A stretch of 64,000 bases of DNA from Eggerthellaceae bacterium (GCA_963602685.1 CAVCJG010000002.1:34547-98546), one strand, 5' to 3'. Numbered from the stretch's first letter, positions 2,634 to 62,234 are shown. Notes: generated by a model not told the origin, from the letters alone. Made by a program: numbers and translations.

Positions 2634-2666
2634 TGTAATATACAAAATAAACGTGGGAGAAAAAGA

Positions 2667-29158: not shown

Positions 29159-30154
29159 TTATAGCAATTCAACGTCATGTGCTTTGCAATCTTTAACTGT
29201 TGCTTCGTCCCAATAAGACGCTTGAACTTCGCCTATGTGTGCTCTTCCTAAAAGTAACTGACAAAGTCTGCTTTGGCCGATTCCGCCACCAATAGTAAGT
29301 GGAAGTTTGTCTTCTAAAATCATCTTGTGATAAGCATATTTCATGCGCTCTTGCTTGCCAGATTTTTCGATTTGTTTAACCAGCGAATCTTTGTCAACTC
29401 GGATGCCCATGCTTGAAATTTCAAGCGCCATATCAAGCACTTCGTGATAAAACATAAGGTCGCCATCAAGTGCCCAATCGTCATAATCCGGCGCACGCAA
29501 ATCGTGTGGCTGACCATCTGAAAGAACGTCACCAATTTGCATGATAAACACTGTTTTGTATTTTTTGACGATTTCATATTCGCGTTGCTTTGGAGTAAGT
29601 GAAGGATAAAGATCCAGCAATTCTTGTGTGGTTATGAATTTCACATCTTCGCAAATGTCAACGCCGCTAAAGCCTTTTGCCTGCAAATATTTGCTTGTGT
29701 CGCAAACAGCCTTAACAATTTTTTTAACTGTTTTTTGCAAATAAGCAATCGTGCGGTCGCGCTTTAAAATAACTTTTTCCCAATCCCATTGGTCAACATA
29801 AATGGAGTGTGTTTCATCCATTTTGTCGTCACGGCGGATTGCGGTCATGTCGGTGTAAATGCCTTTGTGAGTGGCAATTTGATATTTCGCCAAAGCAAAG
29901 CGTTTCCACTTTGCAAGAGATTGAACAATTTCAAGTTCTTTCCCGTCTTTTAAAATGTCAAAGCAAACTTTTCTTTCAACTCCGCTTAAATCATCTTGGA
30001 GTCCCGACTCTTGTGTCACAAGAAGTGGGGCAGAGACGCGAGTTAAATCAAGGCGTTTTGCAAGTTCCTTTTCAAATTTGTCTTTAATAAGTTTTATATA
30101 TTTTTGTTTTTCCATTACGCTAAGTTTTGCGTATTTATCTTTTATAATTTTCAT
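29159..30154 (-). CDS. asnA: Aspartate--ammonia ligase (asparagine synthetase A)
   Basis: 331 aa. AsnA-type class-II-synthetase-like sequence (GGGIGQSRLCQLLL near the C-terminus). SD AAGGAG. Confidence 0.9.
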   Translation of the reverse strand: MKIIKDKYAKLSVMEKQKYIKLIKDKFEKELAKRLDLTRVSAPLLVTQESGLQDDLSGVERKVCFDILKDGKELEIVQSLAKWKRFALAKYQIATHKGIYTDMTAIRRDDKMDETHSIYVDQWDWEKVILKRDRTIAYLQKTVKKIVKAVCDTSKYLQAKGFSGVDICEDVKFITTQELLDLYPSLTPKQREYEIVKKYKTVFIMQIGDVLSDGQPHDLRAPDYDDWALDGDLMFYHEVLDMALEISSMGIRVDKDSLVKQIEKSGKQERMKYAYHKMILEDKLPLTIGGGIGQSRLCQLLLGRAHIGEVQASYWDEATVKDCKAHDVELL

Positions 30155-30241
30155 TGTTTTTTCTCCTTAAATTTTTTTGATTTTTATTTTTTTTGTGTGT
30201 GAAAGCCTGTGCATTTAAGGATAAAAAACAAAGCATGATTT

Positions 30242-30316
30242 TTAACTTTTGCGTTTAATCCTTAAATGTAAAAAATTATTATTGTCTTCGCCCGCTACGG
30301 CATTTTTCTTTTTCAT
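30242..30316 (-). CDS. Candidate leader peptide 2 (24 aa, MKKKNAVAGEDNNNFLHLRIKRKS)
   Basis: SD AAAAGGAG lies 8 nt before the ATG. Three consecutive AAT Asn codons are present. Codons 17-20 are part of an 11-nt segment complementary to downstream sequence. Confidence 0.5.
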   Translation of the reverse strand: MKKKNAVAGEDNNNFLHLRIKRKS

Positions 30317-30350
30317 AGTAAAATTCTCCTTTTAATTTGGTATATAAAAA

Positions 30351-30379
30351 AGCACCTTCCTGAGTTTCAAGAAGGTGCT
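30351..30379 (-). terminator. Terminator/attenuator hairpin between the two leader ORFs
   Basis: On the minus strand, AGCACCTTC-ttgaaactcag-GAAGGTGCT is followed by TTTTTTAT. Confidence 0.6.
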
Positions 30380-30409
30380 GATTTATTGATTTGGTTTAAT
30401 TAAATAGCA

Positions 30410-30478
30410 TCAAAAAGAAACCCACTGATTTCGTGTGTTTGAGTTGTTTGAATTGTTGCTATTTAAAATTCTAAACAT
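30410..30478 (-). CDS. Candidate leader peptide 1 (22 aa, MFRILNSNNSNNSNTRNQWVSF)
   Basis: SD AAAGGAGAG lies 6 nt before the ATG. 7 of 22 codons are Asn. It sits directly downstream of a consensus-like promoter. Confidence 0.5.
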   Translation of the reverse strand: MFRILNSNNSNNSNTRNQWVSF

Positions 30479-30491
30479 TTTTGTCTCTCCT

Positions 30492-30531
30492 TTGACATTT
30501 TTATAATATGCCATAAAATTGTGTTTGTCAA
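30492..30531. promoter_or_regulatory. Interdigitated divergent promoters bounded by inverted TTGACA hexamers
   Basis: Minus strand: TTGACA (30531-30526)-N17-TATTAT (30508-30503). Plus strand: TTGACA (30492-30497)-N16-TAAAAT (30514-30519). Confidence 0.5.
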
Positions 30532-30732
30532 CTCTTTTTTTTAAAAATTTATGCGCAAAAAAACGCAATCGCCATTTTCTTTTAAAAAATAAGGGCACAA
30601 AACAATGCAACCGATTGCATTTTGCGGCCAACTTGTGCTATTATTTTTATGAGCAAAGAATATGCATTTAATTGCAGCTATTCACATTTCTTAACAATCA
30701 ACAAAAAACTTAAGCTATAAAAGGAGAACCAC

Positions 30733-31524
30733 ATGAATCTTATCTTAACAAGCTGCTTAAATTTTTATCATAAAGATAATGATGGCAAAAAAATAGCACA
30801 AAATTTTGGTAATGAAAATGGTATAATGAATCTCATTAAAAAGTTAACACCAAAACATGACAATTTTGTTTTTGTCGCAAGTTCTGAATTCGGTTACAAT
30901 GCGACAGATATTTATGCCAGTCTAACATTTGATTCTTTTAGGATTTCATTTCCTTTTAAAAATTACGTTGTTTTAGACGGAAGAACAAAAGATAAAACAA
31001 AAGAAATTATTGAAAATGCTGATTTAATCTTTTTATGTGGGGGACACGTTCCAACACAGAATAAATTTTTTCAAAACATCAATTTGAAAGAAATAATAAA
31101 AAACACAAAAGCATTGATTATTGGTCAAAGTGCAGGTTCGATGAACTCGGCCGATGTTGTGTATGCGCAGCCAGAGATTGAAGGAGAATCAGTCGATCCA
31201 ACTTATAAAAGATATCTTAAAGGATTAGGATTGACTAAAATAAGCATTCTTCCTCATTTCGAGCAATGCATAGATGATGTCGTTGACGGCAAAAACATAT
31301 TTAAAGAGATTTCTATACCAGACAGTAAAATAAGACCATTTATAGCCTATTCTGATGGCGCCTATATTTATGATGATGGAGTGCAGCAACTTATGTATGG
31401 CAAGGCATATTTGTTTGAAAATGGAAGTTATCATCTAATATCACAAGAAAATGCAGTAACAGACATTACACAACTTGTTAAAAACAAATTTTGCAAGAAC
31501 AATTGCGATTTAATTAAAGAGTAA
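30733..31524 (+). CDS. Peptidase E-like (S51 / type 1 glutamine amidotransferase-like) protein
   Basis: 263 aa. LIFLCGGHVPTQ...ALIIGQSAGSMN resembles the dipeptidase E nucleophile region. Confidence 0.6.
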   Translation: MNLILTSCLNFYHKDNDGKKIAQNFGNENGIMNLIKKLTPKHDNFVFVASSEFGYNATDIYASLTFDSFRISFPFKNYVVLDGRTKDKTKEIIENADLIFLCGGHVPTQNKFFQNINLKEIIKNTKALIIGQSAGSMNSADVVYAQPEIEGESVDPTYKRYLKGLGLTKISILPHFEQCIDDVVDGKNIFKEISIPDSKIRPFIAYSDGAYIYDDGVQQLMYGKAYLFENGSYHLISQENAVTDITQLVKNKFCKNNCDLIKE

Positions 31525-36318: not shown

Positions 36319-36386
36319 AAAATTGCCTCTACATTATCATTCTACTCCCGCAAAAAAATTGTGTGATTAAAAAGTGGCACTGATGT

Positions 36387-36415
36387 TTGAAATCCAACTT
36401 TTTTGCGTTTACAAT
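36387..36415 (+). promoter_or_regulatory. Promoter TTGAAA-N17-TACAAT for the phage-like operon
   Basis: -35 at 36387-36392 and -10 at 36410-36415. SD AAGGAGG at 36431-36437. Confidence 0.5.
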
Positions 36416-36446
36416 GAAACCGAATTTGCAAAGGAGGAGCAGGATT

Positions 36447-36764
36447 TTGGACGAAATTGATCATGAAAAAATCAAAAACGCGCTTTTAAAAAAGGCGCTT
36501 GGCGGTGTTTCAAGTGAGCAAGTGTGCGAATACAGCATTGACGAAAACGGCGAGCCTGTTTTGTCAAAGAAGAAAGTTACAAAAAAGCACATCTCGCCCG
36601 ACCTTGCCGCGCTCAAACTGCTGCTTGAAGAATTTAGCCATGATTTCGATGTCGAAAAAATGACAGATTCTCAGTTGCGAGCAGAACGCAGCCGCCTGTT
36701 GCAATTATTAAAAGAGGAGGAAGAAGATGCAGATAGAGAAATGCACGAGGATGACGAAATGTGA
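36447..36764 (+). CDS. Terminase-small-subunit-like / DNA-binding protein (about 105 aa, TTG start)
   Basis: The pattern ALGG...E...KKKVTKKHISPDLAALKLLLE resembles Firmicutes phage TerS proteins, with an acidic tail. It is first in the operon. Confidence 0.35.
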   Translation: MDEIDHEKIKNALLKKALGGVSSEQVCEYSIDENGEPVLSKKKVTKKHISPDLAALKLLLEEFSHDFDVEKMTDSQLRAERSRLLQLLKEEEEDADREMHEDDEM

Positions 36765-36960
36765 CTTTTTAGGTTGCAACAACCTTGCTGATTATTGTTT
36801 CAGCACAAAGGGCGTGTTGCGCAGAGAACTGGCATTTTGCAAAGATTGCTTAAAAGGCATGTATGAAGAAATTGGCAAAATTCAAGTTCCTAAAGCCACC
36901 AACTCGCCATTCAAATTAAGATCAAGGATAAGGAAGGACAGATATGAAGAAGACAATTAA
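36751..36960 (+). CDS. Cys4 zinc-ribbon-like miniprotein (69 aa)
   Basis: CDFLGC...FCKDC (Cx4C...Cx2C). It overlaps both neighbours and occupies the slot where a large terminase is normally found. Confidence 0.4.
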   Translation: MTKCDFLGCNNLADYCFSTKGVLRRELAFCKDCLKGMYEEIGKIQVPKATNSPFKLRSRIRKDRYEEDN

Positions 36961-38800
36961 AAACGAACAAATAGTAAAAGAAGTCAAAGACGATTTTGCG
37001 GCAAGACAAATGGCGCGCAAACCATTTGAGTCGCAGTGGCTTATGAACATGAACTTTTATATGGGCAATCAATTTTGCGACATCGGCTATGGCGGAAACG
37101 TTGAAGAAGTTGACAAACAATTTTTCTGGCAAGAGCGTGAAATTTTCAACCACATTTCGCCGCTTGTTGATGTTAGACTTGCAAAATTAGGAAAAATAAA
37201 GCCAAAAACAACAGTTTTGCCAGCAACAAATGACGAAAAAGACATAAGCGCGGCAAAAGTATCAAAAAAGATTATTGAAAGTGTAACAAGCAAACTTGAT
37301 TTAAACCACAAAATCATCGAAGCGTTGCAGTGGAGCGAAATTTGCGGAACAAGTTTTTACAAAGTGACTTGGAATCCGAATGCGGGTCAAATAATCGCAC
37401 AAGATGCCGACGGAAAACCAGTTCGCAGTGGTGAAGTGGACATCTCAGTTTGCTCGCCATTCGAAATTTATCCCGACTCGTTTACTTGCGAAACTCTCGA
37501 CAGTTGCCAAAGCATAATTCATGCACGTGCGGTCGACGCTAAAAAAGTTGCCAGCGATTATGGCTTGCAAGTAGAAGGCGAAAATTTAAGCATATATTCG
37601 CTTGATTCAACAACAGTCGGATTTGGCGGACTTGGCTATTCGTCAGCAGCGCCAAAAATCAGCAAAGGCATCAAACAAAACAGTGTGCTTGTGCTTGAAA
37701 GATACGAGCGCCCAACCGAAGATTATCCTTTCGGCAGACTTACAATAGTTGTCGGCGACAATCTTGTTTACGACGGCGAACTGCCTTATAAACTTGGCAG
37801 CGATTACGAACGCGATTTTCCATTTGTTAAACAAACTTCGCTCAATCAAGTTGGCTCTTTTTGGGGAGTCAGTGTAATCGACAGATTGATTCCAATTCAA
37901 CGCGCATTCAACTCGGTTAAAAATCGCAAGCACGAATTTATGAACCGACTCACAATGGGCGTGCTTAAAGTTGAAGACGGCTCGGTCGACATCGAAAACC
38001 TTGAAGATGAAGGAGTTTGCCCAGGCAAGATTTTAGTTTATCGTCAAGGCTCAACAGCGCCTGAATTTTTAGAGGGCGACAATGTTTCATCAAGTTTTAG
38101 CGACGAAGAAGAAAAGTTGCTTGCCGAATTTAGAAGCATAAGCGGCGTAAAAGATTTTGACTATGACTATGCTTCATCAAATGTTTCAGGTGTGACACTT
38201 CAACTCATGCTCGAACAAGACGAGTTAAGACTCAACAACACAGCCGAAAACATGAAACGTTGTGTTCGCAAAATTGCACAGGACGTGCTTAGACTTTACA
38301 AGCAGTTTGCGCTTATTCCACGCCTTGCAAGAATAGTGGGTGACAACGGCGAAATTGAACTTTTCTATTTCAATTCAAACGACATTTCAAGTGACGATAT
38401 TTCACTTGAAGCGACAGCCGAACTTGGCGAAAGCATAACTCAACGCCGTCAAATGGTGTTTGACCTTATAAATGCCGGACTTCTTAACGACAACGGCAAC
38501 GAAATGAGCGATAAGATGAAAGTTAAAGCACTTGAACTTCTTGGACTCGGCGTCTGGGAAAACGCGCAAGACACAAACGAATTGCACATCAAAAAAGCGG
38601 ACAGCGAAAACGTTAAGTTGCTTGGTGGCAAAAGTGTAGAACCAAGTCAAATCGACGACCATGCGCTTCACATCGACCGTCATATCGCGTTTATGCTTAA
38701 TGGCGATTATGAAAAGAAACTTGCAGTTCGTCCTGAACTTGAAAGCATCTTTTTGGCACATATAAACAAACACAAAAGCATGCTTAAAGAGCAGCAATAA
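36944..38800 (+). CDS. Phage portal protein (618 aa)
   Basis: The N-terminal ARQMARKPFESQWLMNMNFYMGNQ motif is typical of podovirus-type portals. Size and position before the scaffold and coat genes fit. Confidence 0.7.
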   Translation: MKKTIKNEQIVKEVKDDFAARQMARKPFESQWLMNMNFYMGNQFCDIGYGGNVEEVDKQFFWQEREIFNHISPLVDVRLAKLGKIKPKTTVLPATNDEKDISAAKVSKKIIESVTSKLDLNHKIIEALQWSEICGTSFYKVTWNPNAGQIIAQDADGKPVRSGEVDISVCSPFEIYPDSFTCETLDSCQSIIHARAVDAKKVASDYGLQVEGENLSIYSLDSTTVGFGGLGYSSAAPKISKGIKQNSVLVLERYERPTEDYPFGRLTIVVGDNLVYDGELPYKLGSDYERDFPFVKQTSLNQVGSFWGVSVIDRLIPIQRAFNSVKNRKHEFMNRLTMGVLKVEDGSVDIENLEDEGVCPGKILVYRQGSTAPEFLEGDNVSSSFSDEEEKLLAEFRSISGVKDFDYDYASSNVSGVTLQLMLEQDELRLNNTAENMKRCVRKIAQDVLRLYKQFALIPRLARIVGDNGEIELFYFNSNDISSDDISLEATAELGESITQRRQMVFDLINAGLLNDNGNEMSDKMKVKALELLGLGVWENAQDTNELHIKKADSENVKLLGGKSVEPSQIDDHALHIDRHIAFMLNGDYEKKLAVRPELESIFLAHINKHKSMLKEQQ

Positions 38801-38818
38801 AAATTTAGGAGAAAAATT

Positions 38819-39430
38819 ATGGAAGAAGAAATCAAAGAGGAACAACCAGTCATAGAACAGGCAAATGTTTCAGACGAGACGAGTGATAAGAGTGCCGCTA
38901 GTTTGACAGGCTCCTCACAAGAAAAAGGCTTTGGAAAGTTTAAGTCGGCGGAGGCGCTCTTAGAGGCCTATAAGGCGCTTGAAGCGGAATTTACAAGAAA
39001 AAGCCAACAACTAAGCGAACTTGAGAAAGAAAAAGCGGAAGCAGCAACCGTCAACGAACAAAAAGTCGAAGACGAACTGAACACGTTCCTTTCAAAAAAC
39101 AGCGATGCAAAGCCATATGCCGACCAGCTTAAAGCAAAAAGTTTGGCAGAAGGCGGGAGAGTTGATTTTGACAATATTTATGCCGGAGTTATGGTTGAAA
39201 ACCTTGCATCTGGCGGGTCAAAACTCGACAATCCGATTGTAAAAAAGTATGTCGTTCAAGACGACGAACTTAGAAATTATGTAATAGAAACTTACATGCA
39301 AAACCTTAAACAAAATCAACCACCATATCTCATCAGTGGCGACAAAGGCGAAAAAGTGACCGGTCAAAAGCCGGCCACTCCAATGTCGCTGAAAGACGCA
39401 AAGAGAATGGTTGAGGAAATGTTTAGTTAA
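38819..39430 (+). CDS. Phage scaffolding protein (GP20-like)
   Basis: Acidic, coiled-coil protein. FKSAEALLEAYKALEAEFTRKSQ matches the GP20/scaffold motif. Confidence 0.6.
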   Translation: MEEEIKEEQPVIEQANVSDETSDKSAASLTGSSQEKGFGKFKSAEALLEAYKALEAEFTRKSQQLSELEKEKAEAATVNEQKVEDELNTFLSKNSDAKPYADQLKAKSLAEGGRVDFDNIYAGVMVENLASGGSKLDNPIVKKYVVQDDELRNYVIETYMQNLKQNQPPYLISGDKGEKVTGQKPATPMSLKDAKRMVEEMFS

Positions 39431-39444
39431 TTTAGGAGGAAAAA

Positions 39445-40722
39445 ATGGTTACATTAACAAACGTAGAAAATGCTCTTAAAGACGTTTATCTTGGAGTTGT
39501 TGCAAACCAACTTAACGTTTCAACAAACCCACTTCTTGCAAAAATCAAACGCACAACAAAAGACGTTTGGGGCAAAGAAATCGTAAAAATGGCACCTTAT
39601 GGACTTAACGGTGGCGTAGGCGCTGGTGGCGAAACATCAATGCTTCCAGGGGCATTTGGAAATAAATACGCTCAATTTAGAGCAACACTTAAAAACCTTT
39701 ATGGTAAAATCGAAATTTCAGACAAAGCAGTGCGCAGCACAGCAAACAACATGGGCGCTTTTGTAAATCTTTTACAAGACGAAATGGAAGGCCTTTTGAA
39801 GGCAAGCTCTTTCAACCTTGGCAGAATGCTTTATGGCGACGGAACAGGCAAGTTGGGAACTGCACTTTACACAGAATCTGACGGCGGAAATATCGTCTGC
39901 GACAAAGTAAACAACCTTGTTGAAGGAATGGTTATTGACATGGTCAACCAAACAACCGGACTTGCAGATTATTCTAGATGCAGAGTTACATATGTAGACA
40001 GAGTAAACAAAAAAATCCGCGTAGACAAAATGAACATCAGAGTTTTGGAATCTAAACCTTATGGAATGTATGTCCAAGGCTCATACAACAACGAAATCAC
40101 AGGAATTGGAGCACTTTTCAATGGCTCTACAACACTTTATGGGCTTACAAGAGCCGACTATTTGTGGCTTAACCCATACAAGTCAACCGAAGAAAAAGAA
40201 GTTTCTGACAATATGATTCAAACAGCGATTGACTTCCTTGATGAAAATGCAGATTCAAAAGTAAACTACATTTCTTGCTCAAGCAAAGTTAGACGCGCTT
40301 ATCAACAATACATGAACGCTTACAAATCAAACATCGAAATCGTTGATTTAGGTGAAGGCTTCAAAGCAATTTCTTACAATGGAATTCCAATGTTTGCCGA
40401 CAGATTTGTTGACGAAGACACAATGTATTTGTTAAACACAAACGACTTTACAATGCACGAACTTTGCGACTGGCAATGGATTGAAGGTGACAGCGGTCAC
40501 ATTCTTAAACAAAACGCAAGCTATCCAACATACTCTGCAACTCTTGTTAAGTATGCTGAACTTATCTGCGACAGACCAAATGGACAAGCAAAGATTTCAG
40601 GCATCAAATCAACAATCACAAATCCATTAAACCTTACCGCAAATGTTACCTGTGAATGCAACTGCGCAAGCAGCTCAACAACAACAGACACACAAGATCC
40701 AAGCGGAAGCGACGGAGAATAA
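39445..40722 (+). CDS. Phage major capsid (coat) protein (425 aa)
   Basis: It follows the scaffold gene and has a strong SD. Size and N-terminal pattern are coat-like. The C-terminal Cys/Ser/Thr-rich tail is unusual. Confidence 0.65.
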   Translation: MVTLTNVENALKDVYLGVVANQLNVSTNPLLAKIKRTTKDVWGKEIVKMAPYGLNGGVGAGGETSMLPGAFGNKYAQFRATLKNLYGKIEISDKAVRSTANNMGAFVNLLQDEMEGLLKASSFNLGRMLYGDGTGKLGTALYTESDGGNIVCDKVNNLVEGMVIDMVNQTTGLADYSRCRVTYVDRVNKKIRVDKMNIRVLESKPYGMYVQGSYNNEITGIGALFNGSTTLYGLTRADYLWLNPYKSTEEKEVSDNMIQTAIDFLDENADSKVNYISCSSKVRRAYQQYMNAYKSNIEIVDLGEGFKAISYNGIPMFADRFVDEDTMYLLNTNDFTMHELCDWQWIEGDSGHILKQNASYPTYSATLVKYAELICDRPNGQAKISGIKSTITNPLNLTANVTCECNCASSSTTTDTQDPSGSDGE

Positions 40723-40727
40723 GATTT

Positions 40728-40756
40728 AAGAGGCACATTGATGCCTCTTAATTTTT
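40728..40756 (+). terminator. Hairpin plus T-run immediately after the coat gene (partial terminator?)
   Basis: AAGAGGCA-cattga-TGCCTCTT followed by AATTTTT, 11 nt before the next ATG. Confidence 0.5.
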
Positions 40757-40766
40757 AGGAGAAAAA

Positions 40767-41090
40767 ATGAAAAACCAAATTTTGCTCGAAAACGACCCAT
40801 ATTACATTTCATCACGAATAAAAGAGGTTGATGAGAGTTACTTTATAGTCTATTCCAAAAAGCGTAACGTTTTTGAATTGCATTCGTCACGCCAACTTTT
40901 TTCGACATATGCGCTTACAATTCCATACGATCAACTTGACGAGCGCACAATTTTTTTAGCGCGCAAAACGCGCCGCGAAAACGCAGATGAACTTATAAGG
41001 AAGATGGACGAAGATAACGCTCGCCTTGAAAACAAGATGAGAAACAACGCGTTAGAGCAAATAAAAGAGGTGAAAAATGAAATTAAATGA
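40767..41090 (+). CDS. Phage-module hypothetical protein (107 aa)
   Basis: Good SD. Coiled-coil C-terminus. No family recognised. Confidence 0.5.
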   Translation: MKNQILLENDPYYISSRIKEVDESYFIVYSKKRNVFELHSSRQLFSTYALTIPYDQLDERTIFLARKTRRENADELIRKMDEDNARLENKMRNNALEQIKEVKNEIK

Positions 41091-41628
41091 CGCAATCAAA
41101 CTCAGTTGTGATTTTTTAGATTTAGAGCAACTTAAATCCAAAATCGGAGCGCAAGAGGTTGACGACGAATCATCAAAACAGTTGAATAAATTGCTTTGCT
41201 GCGCCAACCTTGCATATGAAGAAATCGTCACTGAATATCTTCCAATTTTGCATACAGAAACGCTTGATGTGACAAACGGGCAAATCTCATTTGGCTTGCT
41301 TGCAAAGCCAATTTGTGGGATTATTTCAGTTCAAGACGAAAACGGAAGTGACATAAAATATTCGCTCTCAGCCGACCACATTTCGTTGTCGGCACAGAAA
41401 GCGACAATCACTTATCAAACAATTCCAAGCGCCCTTGCTTACGGCGCCGAAGTCAGCGTGCTTTTCCCGGAAAGATTGCTTGCTTATGGAATTGCGCGTG
41501 AATATCTCTTTTTGCAAGACAAGTCCGACGAAGCGTTGATATTTGAAAAACGCTTTAAAGACGGGCTTACAAGTTTTGTTCGCAAAAAAAGCGCATTGAT
41601 TTTGCCAAGAAGAAGATGGCACGCATAG
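41077..41628 (+). CDS. Possible head-to-tail adaptor (183 aa)
   Basis: The call rests on position and size only (compare P22 gp4 and T7 gp11). Overlaps the upstream gene by 14 nt. Confidence 0.35.
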   Translation: MKLNDAIKLSCDFLDLEQLKSKIGAQEVDDESSKQLNKLLCCANLAYEEIVTEYLPILHTETLDVTNGQISFGLLAKPICGIISVQDENGSDIKYSLSADHISLSAQKATITYQTIPSALAYGAEVSVLFPERLLAYGIAREYLFLQDKSDEALIFEKRFKDGLTSFVRKKSALILPRRRWHA

Positions 41629-41638
41629 GGAGGGGAAA

Positions 41639-43069
41639 ATGTTCAACAGAAAAACTCTTCCAACAAGATCGGGAAAACTCCAAACCGCGCAAATCGACGA
41701 TTACAACGAAATCGAACAACTCAGTTACAACGTCAGAGTGACCGAAAACGGCATCGAAGACGGCTATGGTTTTGAAAGATTGACCCTTCCGACATCGGCG
41801 CTTTCGCCCGAGCAAACCTTTTCGTTAAACGCCACCCAAATTTATGGATTATGGCAGTTTAAGTGGTTTGACAACACCGCAAACGTTGATAAATATTACA
41901 TTTATTACATGAACGAAAACAGACAAATAAAATACATCAACATCTTGTCAAAAAAGACGATTTATGTGACAAACATAACTCTGAATTCTTACACGCCTTC
42001 GTGCGCGACTTTTAGAATCAATGATGACAATGACATGATATTTTTCTCTTCCGAAACCGACCAAACTATCGGCCACGGCGGAAGCGGAAAGCAGGTTTTT
42101 GAAAACATTCCGAAGTTTATTTCGGGTTGCTGGCATGGCCCATATCTGTTTTTAGTGACAACTGGCGCGGCAAACAAACTTATTTACAGCCGTTCAAAAA
42201 TCGACATTTGGAACGACGACAACACCGAAGAAGTTGTGATTCCCGATGTGCGCGGTGGCATGAAAAAGGTCATATCAGTCAACGACAATTTGTATCTGTT
42301 TTATGAATATGGAATCGTTAAACTTTCGCTTTATTCGACTGATGCAAAAGTTGCTTACAGCCACATATTCAATTCGTCGGCATACATCTATCCAAACACG
42401 ATTGCAAAATGCGGCAACAGCATTTATTTTCTGACTTCCGAAGGAATTTTCTCTCTCGAAGGCGGACAAGTTAAAAAACTTGCCGCGCAGTCAGAATATA
42501 TTTGCGAGTCCAACTCAAAAGCGTGCGGAGAATGCTATGACGACAAATACTTTTTGGCGTGCAAATGCAACTTTGCAGACGGCAAAACGATAGGCGAAGA
42601 AAACACTTCAAACCATCAAAACAACGCGCTTGTTGTTCTTGATTTAAAAACGCAAAAGTTTTCATACACGCGCGGAATTGATATTGTGAGTTTGCTTGAT
42701 ATCAAAACTCCACAAGTGCAAAAACTTTGCGCCATTTTCCGCGGCAACAGCAAATCGCTGATTGGCCAACTTACAACCGACGGCAAATTCTTTGGCGAGC
42801 AACTTCCAAAATGCTGGCAAAGCAAGCCGCTCGATTTTGGCTCGCTTGACGAAAAAGAGATTGTTGAAATCGGTTTCAAAAGTGGCGCAGTTGGAGATAT
42901 GAGCATATCTTCTTTTGACCGGACAAAATCGCTTGCGCTGTCAAATGGGCAGTCACAGCCGGTCAAATGCAAAGCAAAAGTGCTTGGCGAAGTTTTCACT
43001 TTGTCTTTTAGTTCTTCATCAAGTTTAAAAATATCTTATCCAAAAATAAAGGTTAAGCATTTTGAATGA
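41639..43069 (+). CDS. Possible tail hub/nozzle protein (476 aa), beta-propeller-like repeats
   Basis: The call rests on position and size (compare P22 gp10). Recurring strand motifs are YYIYYMNE, LYLFYEYGIVKL, IYFLTSEGIFSL and YFLACK. Confidence 0.35.
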   Translation: MFNRKTLPTRSGKLQTAQIDDYNEIEQLSYNVRVTENGIEDGYGFERLTLPTSALSPEQTFSLNATQIYGLWQFKWFDNTANVDKYYIYYMNENRQIKYINILSKKTIYVTNITLNSYTPSCATFRINDDNDMIFFSSETDQTIGHGGSGKQVFENIPKFISGCWHGPYLFLVTTGAANKLIYSRSKIDIWNDDNTEEVVIPDVRGGMKKVISVNDNLYLFYEYGIVKLSLYSTDAKVAYSHIFNSSAYIYPNTIAKCGNSIYFLTSEGIFSLEGGQVKKLAAQSEYICESNSKACGECYDDKYFLACKCNFADGKTIGEENTSNHQNNALVVLDLKTQKFSYTRGIDIVSLLDIKTPQVQKLCAIFRGNSKSLIGQLTTDGKFFGEQLPKCWQSKPLDFGSLDEKEIVEIGFKSGAVGDMSISSFDRTKSLALSNGQSQPVKCKAKVLGEVFTLSFSSSSSLKISYPKIKVKHFE

Positions 43070-43134
43070 AAATTACAGACCTAAACTATTCGTTGTTTTT
43101 GAAGCGGCAGGCTATGAAAGGAGAAAGGGCAGAA

Positions 43135-43206
43135 ATGAAGAAATTATTGCAAGTTTGCGATAATGGTGGTGAAGGAAAGATAAAATGGAACTCTGGCAAG
43201 AAATAA
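43135..43206 (+). CDS. Possible 23-aa miniORF (MKKLLQVCDNGGEGKIKWNSGKK)
   Basis: SD AAAGGAG lies upstream. It overlaps the start of the BhlA-like gene. Too short for the ORF track, so it is speculative. Confidence 0.2.
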   Translation: MKKLLQVCDNGGEGKIKWNSGKK

Positions 43207-43442
43207 TAAGCGTGATAATCAGCAACGGCATATTTGCCATATTGTTTGTTTATCTGTTTTATTATCAACTTAGAGACAGCAAACGACGTGAAGAAAAATA
43301 TCAAAAGACAATCGAACAACTTTCTGAGCACCTTGGTGTGATTGAGCAAATCAAAGAAGACGTTGAATATTTAAAAGACGTTGTTACACCTAAAAGGAGA
43401 AGAAAAGATGAAGTTCACGACCAAACTCAAACAAATGATTAA
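43185..43442 (+). CDS. BhlA/UviB-family holin-like protein (85 aa)
   Basis: One N-terminal TM (IISNGIFAILFVYLFYYQL) followed by RDSKRREEKY, as in BhlA/UviB. Confidence 0.6.
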   Translation: MELWQEIISVIISNGIFAILFVYLFYYQLRDSKRREEKYQKTIEQLSEHLGVIEQIKEDVEYLKDVVTPKRRRKDEVHDQTQTND

Positions 43443-43812
43443 ATCTTACAGTTTTTGGACGACGCTTGCAGGTTCACTTGCACTTGTTGCCAGCGCAATA
43501 GGCAAAGCGTTCAGCATAAAAGTTGAAGAAAAAATCATAATCGATATAGTCATGGCAATCGCTGGCGTGCTTGTCGCAGTGGGCGTTGTTACAATGCCAT
43601 CTGATAAAAGCAAAACCGACGAAAAAGAAGATGCTTCGAAAGAAGAAATCGTAAAAGATGACGCGTCAAAACAAGGCGAAGAAAAGTTAATCGAAGCGGC
43701 CGACCAAATCCAAGCCGAGATTTCCCAAAAAGAAGAAATCAGTCAAGAGCAGGCAAAAGAAGAATCCCCAAAGCCTGTTTCTGACTCTAGCCATGATAAA
43801 GACGAAAAATAA
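43408..43812 (+). CDS. SPP1-type holin-like protein with a long acidic/lysine-rich tail
   Basis: Two TM helices (FWTTLAGSLALVASAIG; IVMAIAGVLVAVGVV). The start is set at the ATG after AAAGGAGA. Confidence 0.5.
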   Translation: MKFTTKLKQMIKSYSFWTTLAGSLALVASAIGKAFSIKVEEKIIIDIVMAIAGVLVAVGVVTMPSDKSKTDEKEDASKEEIVKDDASKQGEEKLIEAADQIQAEISQKEEISQEQAKEESPKPVSDSSHDKDEK

Positions 43813-43817
43813 AGAAA

Positions 43818-43844
43818 AGAGGGCACAAACGCCCTCTTTTTTTA
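43818..43844 (+). terminator. Intrinsic terminator ending the phage-like operon
   Basis: AGAGGGC-acaaac-GCCCTCT followed by T7. Confidence 0.7.
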
Positions 43845-43899
43845 TTGAATGTTGACAAAAGAGGCAAATTATGATAAAATAAAAAAGTAGGAGAGAGAA

Positions 43900-44334
43900 A
43901 TGGAAGAAAATAAGAAAACAATGGCAGAAACCTTTCTTTATGAAGATGTAAAAATAAATAAAGACTTTGTCAGCAAAGTTCTTGATGTAACGATGCCAGA
44001 TAAATTTGGCGCAAGCACGGTTCTTTTTAAAGACGGAAGCACTTGCACAGCACATTGGAAAACTTTTTTCATTGCAAACAAGCCAATGGCGCCTATATTC
44101 CGATTTGACCAACATGTCATTCAAGACGTTCAAGGCGACTGCTCATTGATTAACCTTCCACTTTTTAAAATAATTCTTGCTTATGGTATAGCATTGCCAA
44201 ATAAATTAATATCAGCAGCATTTGACCAGGATATAATAGCCGATGGTGACCTTGCTACAATATACACGCTCAACAAGGCGTGCGACGCAGTCGATAAATA
44301 CTACGAACACAAAAACACTCCACCTCAAATTTAA
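43900..44334 (+). CDS. Hypothetical protein (144 aa) with its own promoter
   Basis: TTGACA (43852-43857)-N17-TAAAAT, SD GTAGGAGAG, and terminator at 44343-44369. No lysin motif recognised. Confidence 0.5.
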   Translation: MEENKKTMAETFLYEDVKINKDFVSKVLDVTMPDKFGASTVLFKDGSTCTAHWKTFFIANKPMAPIFRFDQHVIQDVQGDCSLINLPLFKIILAYGIALPNKLISAAFDQDIIADGDLATIYTLNKACDAVDKYYEHKNTPPQI

Positions 44335-44422
44335 TAAATAAAACGGCCACGAAATGTGGTCGTTTTTTGTTATCTTATTCGATATTTTTGTATAGAAAGA
44401 AAAAAAATCGGGGAGCCCGATT

Positions 44423-51035: not shown

Positions 51036-52177
51036 TAAATCCTAAAATTGACAAATTATTGTTTGGCCAAACGCTAGCCCTTGGCAGCGACAAAAAGATA
51101 ACTTGTTTAGTCAGTGCGTCGGCGTTTAACCAACTTAAAAAGGTGTTAAAAAAACAAAACATCGAAATATTAAATGAATATTTATTCATAAAATCTTTTT
51201 TCATTTCTGCAACCAAACAGCAAATAATGTTTCTTGCGCGCCATGCAAGCGTCAAATTTATATCATCAAACACATGCGCACTTGCGCTTATGAACGTGTC
51301 AAAAAAAGTGTTAAAACTTCCGCCTAAAAATTTGACAGGTGCGGGGGTGGGTGTTGCGTTTATTGATACAGGCATAACCAATCACTATGATTTTTGTTTA
51401 GGGCAAAACCGCATCAAAGGTTTCGTCGATTTTGTCGCAGAAGGAAAATATCCTTATGACGATAATGGTCACGGCACATTTGTCGCTGGCGTGTGCGCGG
51501 GCAGCGGAGCAGTAAGCGGCGGTACATATTCGGGACTTGCGCCATGTTGCGACATCTATTCGCTGAAAGCGCTTGATAAAAATGGCGAAGCATATTCAAA
51601 CAAAATTTTGTCTGCCATGGAGTGGGTCTATCTCAATCATAAAGAGAAAAACATCAAGGTTGTTTGCATGAGTTTTGGAAGCGAGCCGCTTGGAATAAAC
51701 GACCCAATTATGGTTGGCGCCGAACAACTTTGGAATAGTGGAGTGATAGTCGTTGCCGCTGCTGGAAACAGTGGGCCGGAATATCAAACAATAAAATCTC
51801 CGGGCGTCAGTCGCAAAATAATTACAGTTGGCGGAATGGACGACAATCGCATGGACGATCAGTCTTTTTCAAGCGCGCTTTTTGAAATTGCATCTTTCTC
51901 ATCACGCGGGCCGTCGTTTCGCTCATATAAACCTGACGTGGTTGCGCCAGCTGTTGAAATCACATCTTGCAGCACCAATTTTGGCTACACGACTTTAAGC
52001 GGAACAAGCGTCGCCACGCCAATGATTGCGGGCATCATGGCACTGCTGTGCGAGCGCTATCCAAACATCACGCCAGACGAAGCAAAGCGCAAATTGCTTT
52101 CATCGTGCAGACCTATTTGTTATAATAAAAATCTGGAAGGCTTTGGCTATCCAGATTTAACTAAACTTTTCGATTAA
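51032..52177 (+). CDS. S8-family (subtilisin-like) serine peptidase, no signal peptide seen
   Basis: Catalytic triad contexts VAFIDTGI (D), HGTFVAG (H) and GTSVATP (S). Confidence 0.85.
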   Translation: MINPKIDKLLFGQTLALGSDKKITCLVSASAFNQLKKVLKKQNIEILNEYLFIKSFFISATKQQIMFLARHASVKFISSNTCALALMNVSKKVLKLPPKNLTGAGVGVAFIDTGITNHYDFCLGQNRIKGFVDFVAEGKYPYDDNGHGTFVAGVCAGSGAVSGGTYSGLAPCCDIYSLKALDKNGEAYSNKILSAMEWVYLNHKEKNIKVVCMSFGSEPLGINDPIMVGAEQLWNSGVIVVAAAGNSGPEYQTIKSPGVSRKIITVGGMDDNRMDDQSFSSALFEIASFSSRGPSFRSYKPDVVAPAVEITSCSTNFGYTTLSGTSVATPMIAGIMALLCERYPNITPDEAKRKLLSSCRPICYNKNLEGFGYPDLTKLFD

Positions 52178-53194
52178 CTCAATAATTTTAGCATTTGCAT
52201 CATTTTTTCCTGCTTTTTGCAGGTTTTTTTTGTAAAAATTGGCATTTTTAAACATTTTATCAATAGTTTGCTTTAAACTTTGCTTGTTTAAAGATTCATC
52301 TAAAATCATTTCGCCATAGCCAAGTTTTGAAAATAATTTTGCGTTTTCTATTTGGTCGCCGCGTGACGCAGCCTTTGAAAGTGGTAGCATCAGCATAGGT
52401 TTTTGCAGCGCCAACAATTCGTTTATCACGCCCGAACCGGCACGTGTCACAACAAGGTCGGCAGCGGCATAATAGTCGCAAATAGGGTCGAGATATGCAA
52501 ACGGGAAATAACTATCTTTTGGTTGAATTGATGAGATGTTGTTTTTTCCAACAGAGTGAATTATGCAGTAATCTTTGGTCAAATATTCCGGCTCTGCAAG
52601 AAGTTCGTTCATGCGCACCGAACCCAAACTTCCGCCCACAAAAAGAATGATCGGCTTGTTTGGATAGCGAAGTTTTGCCAGCACTTTGCTCTTGTCGCCA
52701 TGAAACATATTTTCGCGAATCGGCTGTCCGGTGAAAATGTATGACGGCGAAATTTTGCTGGTCTCATGAAAGGTTGTGCACACAGCGCAGGCCGTGCGAG
52801 CGATGATTTTGTTTGCCAGCCCAAGCGTCAAATCTGACTCGTGAGTGATAAGTGGAATCTTCAATTTTTTTGCAGCGCGTGCAACTGGCAGCGCAACAAA
52901 TCCGCCTTTTGAAAAAATGATGTCAGGCTTGATTTCTTTTAAAATCTTTTTCGCCTGCTTGATTGACGAGTAAAGTTTAAAGGGAACTTTAAAATTTTTA
53001 ATCAGCTTGCTTCGGTCAAATTTCACGCACTCAATTTCATGAAAAGTGATGTTTTGAAATTTCGACACGATGTCTTTTTCCATGCCGTTTGATCCGATAT
53101 AATGAATTTCCCAATTTTTTAATTGCCCCGCGATGGCAAGGTTGGGATAGATGTGTCCCGCCGTTCCGCCACCTGTAAATACTATTTTTTTCAT
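52157..53194 (-). CDS. murG: Undecaprenyldiphospho-muramoylpentapeptide beta-N-acetylglucosaminyltransferase
   Basis: FTGGGTAGHIYPNLAI N-terminus, 345 aa. Confidence 0.85.
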   Translation of the reverse strand: MKKIVFTGGGTAGHIYPNLAIAGQLKNWEIHYIGSNGMEKDIVSKFQNITFHEIECVKFDRSKLIKNFKVPFKLYSSIKQAKKILKEIKPDIIFSKGGFVALPVARAAKKLKIPLITHESDLTLGLANKIIARTACAVCTTFHETSKISPSYIFTGQPIRENMFHGDKSKVLAKLRYPNKPIILFVGGSLGSVRMNELLAEPEYLTKDYCIIHSVGKNNISSIQPKDSYFPFAYLDPICDYYAAADLVVTRAGSGVINELLALQKPMLMLPLSKAASRGDQIENAKLFSKLGYGEMILDESLNKQSLKQTIDKMFKNANFYKKNLQKAGKNDANAKIIELIEKFS

Positions 53195-58656: not shown

Positions 58657-59325
58657 ATGGATTACGAAAAAACAAACTTAGTCGTAATTTCAGGCAAAAT
58701 TACAAGTGAACCTGAATTCAGTCACGAAATATTAGGTGGCGAAAAATTTTATGAATTTGATGTGGAGGTGAGAAGACTCTCTGGCGCGACCGATACAATT
58801 CCAGTTACTGTTTCCGAAAAAATCATAGCCGCTCAACCAGAAGATTTTAAACTTGGAAGACAAGTCGAAGTGAATGGCGAATATCGTTCACACAACCGCG
58901 AAGAAGAAGGGAAGAGCAAACTTTTGCTTTCAGTCTTTTGCAAACAAATCGGACCAAAAACTGGCGCGGACAAAAACATAATCAAACTTGTTGGATATGT
59001 GTGCAAGCCAACCATCTATCGCATCACTCCATTCAACCGTCAAATCAGTGACATCTTGCTCGCAGTCAATCGCCCAGTCTACAAAAAGACGGATTATATT
59101 CCTGTCATAGCATGGGGCAGAAACGCAGTGTTTGCGCAAAAGTTTGAAGTGGGCGATCGTGTCTATATCGAAGGCAGAGTTCAGTCCCGCCCATTCACAA
59201 AAGTCATTGATGGCGTGGCGTATGACAAAACGGCATACGAAGTAAGCGTTCAGGATATTTCACTTCTTGAAGAGGATGTTGACGCCCACATTTCATACGA
59301 AGAAGACATGGTGCTTGGTGACTAA
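58657..59325 (+). CDS. SSB-like protein with two tandem OB folds
   Basis: Both halves resemble the SSB OB fold (LVVISGKITSEPEF...; IKLVGYVCKPTIYR...YIPVIAWGRNA...VYIEGRVQSR). The tail is acidic but lacks a DIPF tip. Confidence 0.5.
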   Translation: MDYEKTNLVVISGKITSEPEFSHEILGGEKFYEFDVEVRRLSGATDTIPVTVSEKIIAAQPEDFKLGRQVEVNGEYRSHNREEEGKSKLLLSVFCKQIGPKTGADKNIIKLVGYVCKPTIYRITPFNRQISDILLAVNRPVYKKTDYIPVIAWGRNAVFAQKFEVGDRVYIEGRVQSRPFTKVIDGVAYDKTAYEVSVQDISLLEEDVDAHISYEEDMVLGD

Positions 59326-59519
59326 AAATTGTTAAAATAATGCAAAAATAATATACAAAAATAAACAAATAAATTATTATTTTTCGAATTTATTTTAAAT
59401 TTTTTCATTTTTCTATAATTTTATTCATAATTCGACAAAAAATTAAATAATTAAATAAAAAAAGCATTTAATCTCCTTTATTTTAGGGCAGTTTAAATGC
59501 TTTATTTTTTATTATTAAA
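59326..59519. repeat. A/T-rich low-complexity tract ending in a bidirectional hairpin
   Basis: About 90% A+T over 59326-59463. Hairpin AGCATTTAA (59463-59471) / TTAAATGCT (59493-59501) is flanked by A- and T-runs, between convergent genes. Confidence 0.75.
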
Positions 59520-61016
59520 TTAAATCAAAGGCTTTTCCATTGTTTTTGGAATTTCCAAATTCAGCAGTTTAAGCACGGTTGGAGCAATATTTGCAATGCT
59601 TGCTTTTTTATTTTTTATTTTAATTTTTTTGTTGTTTGAAACAATCACAACAGGCACTTTGTTTGTGGTGTGGCTTGTAATAGGTGTGCCCACTGAGTCA
59701 TACATAAGTTCGGCATTGCCATGGTCGGCAGTGATTATGCAAGTTCCGCCAACCATCAAGGTTGCAAGTGCAACGGCATAGGCTTGTTTGTCTACGCACT
59801 CCGCCGCTTCTTTGGCTGCATTAAAGTTTCCAGTGTGACCAAGCATATCAGTGTTTGAATAGTTGATAAGCACAAAATCATATTCGTTTTTTGCAATCGC
59901 ATCAAGCGCGCCGTTTGTGATTTCAATCGCTCTCATTCTAGGATAAGGGGTGTAGTCAGTTGTCTCAATGCTTTCAATCAGTTGGCGCTCTTCTCCGGGA
60001 TATGGTGTTTCAATCGTGCCGTTGAAAAAGAAGGTCACATGTGCATATTTGGTTGTTTCGGCAATGTGAAATTGTTTAAGTCCCGCTTTTGAAATAAGCG
60101 CAGAAAGGTTGTCTTGGATTCTTTCAGGTGGGAATATAACATTCACATTTTCAAGTTTTGCGTCATAACTTTCCATGCTGCTAAACATAAGATTTTTATA
60201 TTTTTTGGTTTTAAATTTATCAAAATTTGGATCGGTAAACGCAAACGAAATTTCGCGCGCTCTATCCGATCTAAAATTATAAAATATCACGCTGTCGCCG
60301 TCTTTAATAATCCCATCTTTGTCGATAAGGCAAGGCTCCATAAATTCATCCGTGATGCCGCGCGAGTAGTTTGTTTTGATTGCATCAAGTGCGCTGTCAA
60401 ACTTTTCGCCTTTGCCCGCGGTCATCAAATCATAGCCCTTTTTAAGTCGGTCATAGCGTTGCTCTCTGTCCATTGTGAAGATTCTTCCGCAAACAGTTGC
60501 GATCTTGGCGTTCTTTGGCATAACGTCCATCAAATCTTCAACATAATATTGTCCCGATGTCGTTCCTGTGTCGCGTCCGTCGGTGATGACATGAACAAAA
60601 ACGGGAATATCGCGGTCGCCTGCGACTTTTAAAATTGCTTCCAAGTGGCTGATGTGGCTGTGAACGCCGCCGTCAGAAAGCAGTCCCATCAAATGCAATC
60701 TTGTCCCGTTCTTTTCGGCATAATCAATCGCCTTTAAAAGGTTTGGATTACTAAAAAAACTTTCGTCCGCGATTGCACGGTCGATTTTTTCAAGGTTTTG
60801 AAGAACAACTCGTCCAGCCCCAAGTGTGAGGTGCCCAACTTCTGAGTTTCCCATTTGTCCAGCAGGCAACCCAACAGCGTTTCCGCTTGCTAAAAGTTGC
60901 GAGTGCGGATATTTCTTCTCCAATTTTTTAAGATAGGGTGTTCCGCTTGCTTTGATTGCATTGCCAAAGCGCGATTTATTTATGCCAAATCCGTCTAAAA
61001 CGATTAAAGTAACCAT
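59520..61016 (-). CDS. gpmI: 2,3-bisphosphoglycerate-independent phosphoglycerate mutase
   Basis: Motifs LIVLDGFG, GNSEVGH and ITADHGN. The start is set at the ATG after GAGGAAAA. Confidence 0.9.
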   Translation of the reverse strand: MVTLIVLDGFGINKSRFGNAIKASGTPYLKKLEKKYPHSQLLASGNAVGLPAGQMGNSEVGHLTLGAGRVVLQNLEKIDRAIADESFFSNPNLLKAIDYAEKNGTRLHLMGLLSDGGVHSHISHLEAILKVAGDRDIPVFVHVITDGRDTGTTSGQYYVEDLMDVMPKNAKIATVCGRIFTMDREQRYDRLKKGYDLMTAGKGEKFDSALDAIKTNYSRGITDEFMEPCLIDKDGIIKDGDSVIFYNFRSDRAREISFAFTDPNFDKFKTKKYKNLMFSSMESYDAKLENVNVIFPPERIQDNLSALISKAGLKQFHIAETTKYAHVTFFFNGTIETPYPGEERQLIESIETTDYTPYPRMRAIEITNGALDAIAKNEYDFVLINYSNTDMLGHTGNFNAAKEAAECVDKQAYAVALATLMVGGTCIITADHGNAELMYDSVGTPITSHTTNKVPVVIVSNNKKIKIKNKKASIANIAPTVLKLLNLEIPKTMEKPLI

Positions 61017-61066
61017 ATTTTCCTCACTTAAAAAAATATTAGCATTTTGGCATAACAAAAGTCAAA

Positions 61067-61528
61067 TTATTTTCGGTCAAAATGTTCGTCAAAAAGTCCG
61101 CCCGAGCCATCTTGCTCGCTGCTCTTTCCGCCGCGTCGCTCGTCATAGCCCCTTGATCGGTCATAGCGGTCATCATATCGATAATCATCGTAATAATCGT
61201 CTCTTGGTTTTTCGCGATATCCGCTGTCGCGACGTCGAATGCTTTCTTTTGACGCTTCAATGTCAGCCGCTTGCATTTGTCTGTATTCTTCGCGCTGCCT
61301 AGCAAGGCGTTTCTTTTTGCCGCCCCAAACATAAATTGCGCCTTTGTCCATAAACATTCTAACGACCAAATAAACGGCAGCCGCGCCCACTATAATGTAA
61401 ATAATTCTTGAAAAAACACTGCCTTGATATCCAAAAATTCCGGCCACGAAATCATATTGCAACAGGCCGATAAGCAGCCAGTTTACGCAGCCAGCGACCA
61501 CCAAAGCAAAGGCGATAAAAGTAATCAT
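61067..61528 (-). CDS. DUF378-family membrane protein with a 90-aa Arg/Asp/Tyr-rich tail
   Basis: AGCVNWLLIGLLQYDFVAGIFG matches the DUF378 core. SD CAGGAGGAAA. The tail contains PRDDYYDDYRYDDRYDRSRGYDERRGG. Confidence 0.7.
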   Translation of the reverse strand: MITFIAFALVVAGCVNWLLIGLLQYDFVAGIFGYQGSVFSRIIYIIVGAAAVYLVVRMFMDKGAIYVWGGKKKRLARQREEYRQMQAADIEASKESIRRRDSGYREKPRDDYYDDYRYDDRYDRSRGYDERRGGKSSEQDGSGGLFDEHFDRK

Positions 61529-61657
61529 AATTTCCTCCTGAAGATAGTATGGATAAAAGAAGTATAAAAATTCTTTAAAAAAGAAAATATGAAAATTATT
61601 TGACAAAACGAAAAAAATGAATATAATATTGTGTATTATGTTTCTTGGAGGTAGGAC

Positions 61658-62131: not shown

Positions 62132-62234
62132 AAAAGTTAAATATTCAGCCTAAAAAACCAAAAAACGCATTTAAATATGTGTTTTTTGTTGCCTAAAAAA
62201 AGATATTTTGCTATACTAAATGCAAGGCAGAAGT

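Follow-up and report, generated by a model that had tools for sequence, protein, structure and literature searches.

Why would a bacterial chromosome keep the head genes of a podovirus with no packaging motor beside them? The question is raised by a 64,000-nucleotide stretch of DNA from an Eggerthellaceae bacterium (GCA_963602685.1 CAVCJG010000002.1:34547-98546), here called the window, in which all coordinates are counted from the first nucleotide. It holds an operon for a portal, a major capsid protein, a tail nozzle and holins, which an initial annotation of the sequence had taken for a domesticated particle-forming module without a motor. That the module is domesticated and intact is supported by its constant gene order, by purifying selection on its genes and by its diverging in step with the host; the motor-less half of that claim does not fit the family to which it belongs, which has a large terminase (TerL). 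Our preferred reading, to which we assign a probability of roughly 60%, is that the window carries one locus of an ancient, chromosomally fixed, podovirus-derived and multi-locus "viriform" resembling a gene transfer agent (GTA), with its TerL block elsewhere. The element is widespread among uncultured Clostridia of the gut and rumen, which are labelled either Christensenella or simply Clostridia.

Gene content and inheritance of the head operon

Open reading frame (ORF) calling recovered eleven co-directional plus-strand ORFs in 36387-44334, with four start/stop overlaps (36727 or 36751/36764, 36944/36960, 41077/41090, and 43381 or 43408/43442), all just as the initial annotation had described them. 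Pfam matches agree with the proposed location between an ABC transporter (ABC_tran, BPD_transp_1) and rpsT (S20) followed by gpr (Peptidase_A25). The operon is smaller than the eleven-gene unit first envisaged: its coding part consists of ten overlapping co-directional genes, m01 to m10 (36447-43812), and the whole unit with promoter and terminator occupies 36387-43848. The eleventh ORF is separate, is not conserved and has its own promoter (see below). This 7.4-kb head operon has a G+C content of 0.36-0.43, compared with about 0.40 for the window, and its composition is host-like, as had been suggested.

Homologues of the capsid protein number more than 6,000 in a large protein collection, many of them on contigs of 100-450 kb, and when one genome from each GTDB species was scanned, a capsid relative turned up in at least 195 species. 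Loci were compared for 80 of these 195 species, all of them uncultured Clostridia or "Christensenella sp." metagenome-assembled genomes (MAGs); single loci are cited below by number (L). In about 50 of the 80, termed window-type loci, an ABC transporter lies immediately upstream of the module as it does here. The order m01-m10 is kept in 80 of 80 loci and no gene is truncated (intactness was checked across 68-80 loci per gene), so that the frameshifted orthologues expected of a decaying element were not encountered. Capsid proteins are 58-97% identical across the 80 loci, and synteny holds across genomes whose GroEL proteins are merely 74-86% identical.

Selection on the module was estimated as the ratio of nonsynonymous to synonymous substitution rates (dN/dS) relative to the closest relative, L003, whose capsid protein is 97% identical. 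Six of the ten genes have values between about 0.03 and 0.08 (portal 0.029, capsid 0.077, nozzle 0.079, m02 approximately 0.07, m06 0.056 and m07 0.068), within the 0.02-0.12 of the flanking housekeeping genes, while the TerS-like gene, the scaffold gene and the holin genes are looser at 0.2-0.47. The comparison of synteny and dN/dS that had been suggested for this locus thus bears out an intact module rather than simple decay.

The module also follows its hosts. Among 42 window-type genomes, pairwise protein distances of the module and of the adjacent ABC transporter are strongly correlated (Mantel r 0.94, p 0.001), and the mean distance of the capsid protein (0.258) is equal in scale to that of the transporter (0.271), indicating that the capsid is equally conserved. 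Every locus inspected is flanked by housekeeping genes, and no integrase, replication gene, repressor or att feature was seen in these loci. In matches labelled viral in IMG/VR (L083-L090) the module genes are arranged just as they are in chromosomal loci, and the L088 type stands on a 422-kb contig, which makes it chromosomal and not a free phage. The module is therefore neither a decaying prophage nor a mobile element; it is vertically inherited and under purifying selection.

Most of the ten products can be placed in a podovirus particle. The longest form of the first ORF opens with the TTG at 36387, which is the -35 hexamer of the operon promoter. A GGAGG at 36432-36436 precedes a second TTG, at 36447, by 10 nucleotides, and m01 most likely starts there, giving a product of 105 amino acids (36447-36764). 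Its TerS-like character, noted from the outset, is supported by matches of 20 of 21 orthologues to phrog_309 (terminase small subunit; best E 6.7e-7), which extend over no more than the middle of the profile (positions 197-243 of 319), and in relatives m01 lies directly downstream of TerL. The overlapping m02 (36727-36960) encodes a conserved mini-protein of 77 amino acids with four cysteines (Cys4, CxxxxC...CxxC) and a basic tail, to which no role is assigned. It is found in nearly all loci, including those with TerL, its cysteines and a C-terminal PKxxxSPFK motif are kept, and no family in Pfam, PHROGs or NCBIfam matches it.

The portal protein, m03 (36944-38800; 618 amino acids), matches Pfam P22_portal (8.3e-17, above the cut-off) and phrog_156 (2.4e-41), and the major capsid protein, m05 (39445-40722; 425 amino acids), matches NCBIfam NF033394, capsid_maj_Podo (5.6e-76), and phrog_14242 (2.2e-47). 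Between them at every locus lies m04 (38819-39430; 203 amino acids), which had been called a GP20-like scaffold. Its sequence gives no support for that name, since no significant family match and no protease match was found in Pfam, PHROGs or NCBIfam, and we treat it as a putative scaffolding protein from its position. The 107-amino-acid product of m06 (40767-41090), whose position is kept in 74 loci, matched nothing significantly in Pfam, in PHROGs or among PDB sequences and perhaps serves in head completion or as a connector.

Immediately before the nozzle gene in all 80 loci is m07 (41077-41628; 183 amino acids), a candidate portal-nozzle adaptor by position and size. No sequence match was found for it in Pfam, PHROGs or a PDB profile search, and profile searches with m01 and m06 against PDB sequences also gave nothing significant. 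Structure prediction, an approach already advised in the initial annotation, was informative for m08 and failed for m07, whose single-sequence model (predicted local distance difference test score, pLDDT, of 35) is unusable. The AlphaFold2 model of m08 (41639-43069; 476 amino acids), built from 22 homologues, has a pLDDT of 87.9 and a predicted template modelling score (pTM) of 0.89. In Foldseek comparisons with the PDB its best match is the Pa223 tail (E 6.8e-18, TM 0.73), followed by the VP1 portal-tail (1.3e-16), and further matches include Pan3, a P22 tail complex chain (9jg6_a, 470 amino acids; E 4e-12), SU10, the PhiM1 nozzle and T7 gp12. Although sequence searches gave no significant family match, and a PDB-sequence profile search returned only a weak match to SU10 (E 0.03), the modelled beta-propeller fold, like that of P22 gp10 and T7 gp12, identifies m08 as a predicted podovirus tail nozzle or hub.

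Two holin-like genes, which database matches confirm together with the portal and coat genes, complete the operon. The first, m09 (43185-43442; 85 amino acids), belongs to the BhlA/UviB family (Pfam Holin_BhlA, 5.7e-16). The second, m10 (43408-43812), matches phrog_297 (1.2e-11) and Pfam Phage_holin_1 (8e-5); it encodes about 134 amino acids from the ATG at 43408, or 143 from an alternative TTG at 43381.

Large terminase genes and the original chromosomal site

According to the initial annotation, the 64 kb lacked genes for TerL, an integrase, replication, fibres and a lysin, and this was upheld. Pfam scans of all ORFs of at least 345 amino acids, and of almost all smaller ones, found no TerL, integrase, replication or lysin domain in the window, and tblastn found no counterpart there of the TerL, sigma-like regulator, membrane protein or fibre-like proteins of relatives. 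The phage-derived genes at this locus are thus head, neck and holin genes only, and the related loci inspected likewise lack replication and integration genes.

Relatives outside the window-type group do carry a motor. An intact TerL of 476-487 amino acids (Terminase_6N, with the Walker A sequence GGNRSGKTE) lies immediately upstream of m01, and upstream of TerL are a sigma-70-region-4/RinA-like regulator and a divergently transcribed membrane protein. This TerL family comprises at least 4,970 clusters and so equals in size the capsid family, which also runs to thousands of clusters.

Three architectures, all with housekeeping flanks, can be distinguished. In the contiguous form (for example L094, L181 and L116) the order is sigma-like regulator, membrane protein, TerL, m01, m02 and portal through to the holins. 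In the fibre-inserted form, which is the Christensenella type, a surface- or fibre-like protein of 760-830 amino acids (Peptidase_M26_N / Flg_new) separates TerL from m01, and the nozzle is followed by a DUF7934 protein; it is complete in L066 and L095, and the TerL-fibre-m01 part is seen in L109 and L111. In the split form, the regulator, membrane protein and TerL make up a standalone block, accompanied by a fibre-like protein in four of five such loci, with no head genes within 10 kb downstream (L091, L107, L110 and L124) or within about 2.4 kb (L103). Standalone head operons occur in other contexts (L051, L053, L057 and L063) as well as in the window-type loci. If the link to faecal DNA packaging considered below is confirmed, the contiguous, fibre-inserted and split forms, in that order, would also provide natural stages in which to follow the dismantling of a phage genome and its rewiring under host control.

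Variation is also seen at the edges of the element. The DUF7934 protein (PF25588; about 300 amino acids) is encoded between the nozzle and the holins in L066 (13772-14662) and in 17 other loci, is missing from the window-type operon, and could be a tail plug, a needle or a lysis protein. Giant surface-protein genes of 2,400 to more than 7,000 amino acids lie directly upstream of the element in L099 (1-7496, with Flg_new repeats), L101 (1-7960) and L100 (3-7205). These variants, on large chromosomal contigs, are richer-tailed, and additional large genes follow the nozzle (340, 692, 799 and 737 amino acids).

The position of TerL in relatives revises two earlier suggestions. The Cys4 gene had been thought to occupy the usual place of the large terminase; TerL instead precedes the TerS-like gene, and TerL-bearing versions include the Cys4 gene too, which is thus no terminase stand-in. 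The proposed parallel with the late gene order of P22 holds for the portal and for a 476-amino-acid nozzle with the gp10 fold, but not for the motor, because the family order is TerL, m01, m02, portal and not gp3-gp2-gp1 with TerL between TerS and portal.

Distant lineages, with GyrA 51-55% identical to that of the window, indicate where the element once resided. In these, the genes murG-gyrB-gyrA-pda-ssb on one side and a gene for a 313-amino-acid polytopic membrane protein (mem313) on the other flank the complete element, which gives murG-gyrB-gyrA-pda-ssb-[sigma, membrane protein, TerL, m01...holins]-mem313. All of this arrangement is visible in L094 and L181; L157, L114, L116, L128, L121, L160 and L171 show the upstream portion. 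The window keeps the same neighbourhood, with murG at 52157-53194, then gyrB, gyrA and pda, ssb at 58657-59325 and the membrane-protein gene at 62220-63161, and this ancestral site (58657-63161) is empty, with iPGM, DUF378 and greA in the place of the element. Because the ancestral neighbourhood is present without the element, gene order indicates that in the lineage of the window the head operon was relocated by about 15 kb to the ABC-transporter site, while the TerL block was moved elsewhere or lost.

The 313-amino-acid protein itself has no Pfam match. Homologues 22-32% identical to it are encoded just downstream of the last genes of the element in distant lineages (L094, L066, L141, L170 and L181). 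The protein may have a functional link with the element, or its gene may just be a neighbour whose place is conserved.

The promoter of the relocated operon carries a signal found in complete elements. A consensus scan recovered the sigma-A-type promoter TTGAAA-N17-TACAAT that had been reported at 36387-36415, and its -35 hexamer, spacer and -10 hexamer are conserved across window-type loci, much more closely than a generic match would be. Exactly 6 nucleotides before the -35 hexamer is a conserved TGGCAC (36375-36380). The full arrangement, TGGCA(G/C), 6 invariant nucleotides, TTGAAA, 17-18 nucleotides and TATAAT, occurs at 38 of 50 window-type loci. Upstream of the sigma-like regulator gene, 18 of 39 TerL-bearing loci have the motif in a relaxed form, compared with 0 of 41 cases upstream of an m01 that directly adjoins TerL and 1.1% of random windows. 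The same promoter architecture before the head operon here and before the regulator gene in TerL-bearing loci suggests that the head operon may now be under the upstream signal that serves the regulator gene of complete elements, with TGGCA(C/G) as a putative regulator-binding site. A sigma-54 reading of TGGCAC was considered and dropped, as the distance to TTG is 6 nucleotides and not 5, and a canonical -10 hexamer follows at 17-18 nucleotides.

Possible function and relation to known systems

The absence of TerL here is best read as reflecting a split system, because the TerL block is a separate locus in several genomes. That a TerS-like gene and a portal have been kept under selection implies continued use of DNA packaging. 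We infer that the genome of the window carries its TerL block elsewhere and packages random host DNA in particles. In such a system, the sigma-A-type promoter with its TGGCA(C/G) element would transcribe the head operon, and the portal, scaffold and major capsid protein would assemble a procapsid. The TerS-like protein would then act with a large terminase from the other locus (the block of sigma-like regulator, membrane protein, TerL and fibre-like protein) to package DNA, the candidate adaptor and the nozzle would close the portal, and the two holins would release the particles.

Packaging of this kind has been reported for related hosts. A nanopore study of gut virus-like particles described GTA-like packaging from Christensenellaceae MAGs, with DNA of approximately 4.1 and 7.1 kb for HGM11616 and approximately 6.3 kb for QANA01, and assigned no element to these events (PMC12946183). 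These fragments of 4-7 kb compare with 7.4 kb for the head operon by itself. We found no description of this Christensenellales element in the literature, and the family described here is an obvious candidate for the source of the Christensenellaceae DNA packaged in GTA-like fashion in virus-like particles from human faeces. Should this be confirmed, a large and abundant gut lineage would join the organisms that exchange DNA by means of particles of their own making. GTAs have long been known almost solely from Alphaproteobacteria and a few other lineages, and FpGTA, the first podovirus-like agent of the gut, was published only in 2026.

The initial annotation knew of no such system built on a podovirus-type head; FpGTA of Faecalibacterium prausnitzii, already in print (Borodovich et al., Nat Commun 2026, preprint November 2024), is one. 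It is podovirus-like, with a 10.5-kb head and packaging operon and a second operon 125 kb away for fibre, receptor-binding and lysis functions, and it forms 40-nm capsids containing 8.4-8.9 kb of host DNA (PMC12946183). Other GTA candidates have been proposed in murine gut Clostridia in a 2026 preprint (PMC13371034). The element in the window resembles FpGTA in consisting of chromosomal podovirus-like particle genes in gut Clostridia, with no replication genes or integrase seen, in its portal-capsid-nozzle operon and podovirus-type nozzle, in being distributed over more than one locus (seen here in relatives), and in being near-ubiquitous in its host clade.

The two are nevertheless not the same element. 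The FpGTA capsid is annotated as N4-gp56 family, and the gene that separates portal from capsid encodes a Prp-like protease, whereas the window has a capsid_maj_Podo capsid and a scaffold-type gene in that place. Operon I of FpGTA includes TerL, with holin and endolysin in operon II, whereas the holins here lie in the head operon and TerL is absent. The host orders differ, and FpGTA has been demonstrated as particles with packaged DNA, whereas the element in the window is known from its genes. We therefore reject identity with FpGTA on capsid family and gene content, compared by annotations and not by sequence. The different capsid family, and the different gene between portal and capsid, place the two in separate lineages of one type of system, and the module is apparently a second podovirus-derived GTA-like family, independent of FpGTA.

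RcGTA-type agents of Alphaproteobacteria also resemble the element in several ways. Ancient domestication, vertical inheritance, purifying selection and a multi-locus organization under host control are common to both, as is a TerS-like protein whose match to the phage TerS profile is partial. RcGTA differs in being siphovirus-like, with an unrelated gene set and TerL inside the head-tail cluster, and no counterpart of its CtrA/GafA regulation was identified here. Among phages, the portal is of the type shared by P22 and SU10, and the nozzle fold is common to P22 gp10, SU10 and T7 gp12. The closest cultured phages, Arthrobacter phage Jasmine and Microbacterium phage Shocker, have a similar order of TerL, two small genes, portal, scaffold-position gene and capsid. 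Identity to any cultured phage is only about 25%, and the window locus differs in being chromosomal and vertically inherited and in lacking TerL, tailspike, needle, ejection, replication and lysin genes.

Several points weigh against a split GTA-like system. For this lineage, particles, packaged DNA and transfer are predictions from gene content, and the adaptor (m07) and scaffold (m04) roles are assigned by position. The BhlA-type holin is also typical of bacteriocin-release systems, the family being annotated in PHROGs for bacteriocin production or immunity. TerL, the sigma-like regulator, a fibre gene and an endolysin gene were found neither in the 64 kb nor within up to 10 kb of about 50 window-type loci. 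No TerL has been tied to any window-type genome, and a metagenome scan for TerL gave no locus with closely window-like housekeeping flanks, the best being gyrB at 72%. Lastly, L085 (65 kb, with an IMG/VR viral label) keeps only a C-terminal TerL fragment, a 176-amino-acid ORF at 2538-3065. The head module beside this fragment is intact, and genes for a DinB-type polymerase and a Glug-repeat protein also lie next to it; loss of TerL at the original site therefore does occur.

The absence of TerL from the 64 kb and from up to 10 kb around about 50 window-type loci, the fragment in L085 and the empty ssb/mem313 site in the window are what one would expect had the window-type clade (about 50 species or more) truly lost TerL and kept the podovirus particle for a role that needs no motor of its own, either borrowing a terminase from an infecting or resident phage, in the way of a helper-dependent particle, or forming empty or protein-filled particles. 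We consider such a loss unlikely, since the TerS-like gene and the portal are intact at every locus, the standalone TerL loci in the family show that physical separation is not equal to loss, and GTAs are typically multi-locus (PMC12946183). If it did occur, the outcome would be a domesticated podovirus particle without a motor of its own that is under strong purifying selection.

A device for killing or lysis is also conceivable, in which the holins drive release of a PBSX-like particle, or of a bacteriocin, with no productive delivery of DNA. PBSX of Bacillus subtilis is a myovirus-like killing particle that, like the element proposed here, is a phage-derived system of a Gram-positive bacterium; it packages host DNA and lyses its producer, and it differs in being encoded at a single contiguous locus with its own terminase. 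Its chromosomal fragments are 13.4 kb and its action has been described as tailocin-like (PMC12946183). The annotation of the BhlA family would suit such a device, as would the lack in the operon of any fibre, receptor-binding or ejection protein, and the authors of FpGTA voice the same caveat about their own element (PMC12946183). We think it quite improbable, because tailocin killing is tied to tail structures, yet the best-conserved genes here are those of the capsid and portal, and a full set of capsid, portal and TerS-like genes under strong selection fits DNA packaging.

The initial annotation had also raised the possibility of a capsid-forming phage satellite, resembling a capsid-forming phage-inducible chromosomal island (cf-PICI), that uses the tail and motor of a helper phage. 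The TerS-like, portal, scaffold, capsid and connector-position genes do resemble those of capsid-forming satellites, an overlap noted for gut candidates (PMC13371034). This origin is nonetheless very improbable, as the loci inspected show none of the integration, replication, repressor or att features of a satellite, the place next to the ABC transporter is identical in about 50 species, the module co-diverges with the host, and the element encodes its own nozzle. A recently truncated, decaying prophage remnant, which the absence of most phage functions and the presence of TerL just upstream of the equivalent genes in the closest cultured phages might suggest, is refuted by genes intact in 68-80 loci, dN/dS as low as in housekeeping genes (for the portal, capsid, nozzle, m02, m06 and m07), host-like composition, synteny between distantly related genomes and co-divergence with the host.

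Operon boundaries and the remainder of the window

Two terminator-like structures lie on the plus strand of the operon. A terminator scan found a hairpin followed by a T-run 3' of the capsid gene (40726-40751), for which a possible function is that of an attenuator setting the stoichiometry of capsid to tail proteins. The operon is closed by a predicted intrinsic terminator at 43815-43848, read from the sequence and also recovered by the scan, which consists of GAGGGC-loop-GCCCTC and then TTTTTTTATT.

The eleventh ORF (43900-44334, plus strand; 144 amino acids, no family match) separates the module from rpsT. A near-consensus promoter of its own, TTGACA-17-TAAAAT, lies at 43852-43880 and a terminator of its own at 44340-44366, and a counterpart, 52% identical, occurs solely in the closest relative. 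Because it has a separate promoter behind the terminator of the operon and a counterpart only in that relative, we place it outside the module. It may be a fast-evolving or recently acquired gene at the 3' edge of the module.

Outside the module, the window ORFs that match any family are housekeeping genes, among them comEC, holA, transketolase, PFOR, alaS, sbcCD, groESL, gyrBA, ssb, iPGM and greA, and a few ORFs have no match at all. Uptake of DNA delivered by RcGTA requires ComEC. In some window-type relatives comEC and then holA lie directly downstream of the holins (L097, 14723-17751), and in the window this pair (3868-6821) is 30 kb from the module; the adjacency in relatives may merit a closer look. 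The lowest G+C content of the window, 0.289, is found at 30001-31000, between asnA (29159-30154, minus strand) and a Peptidase_S51 gene (30733-31524).

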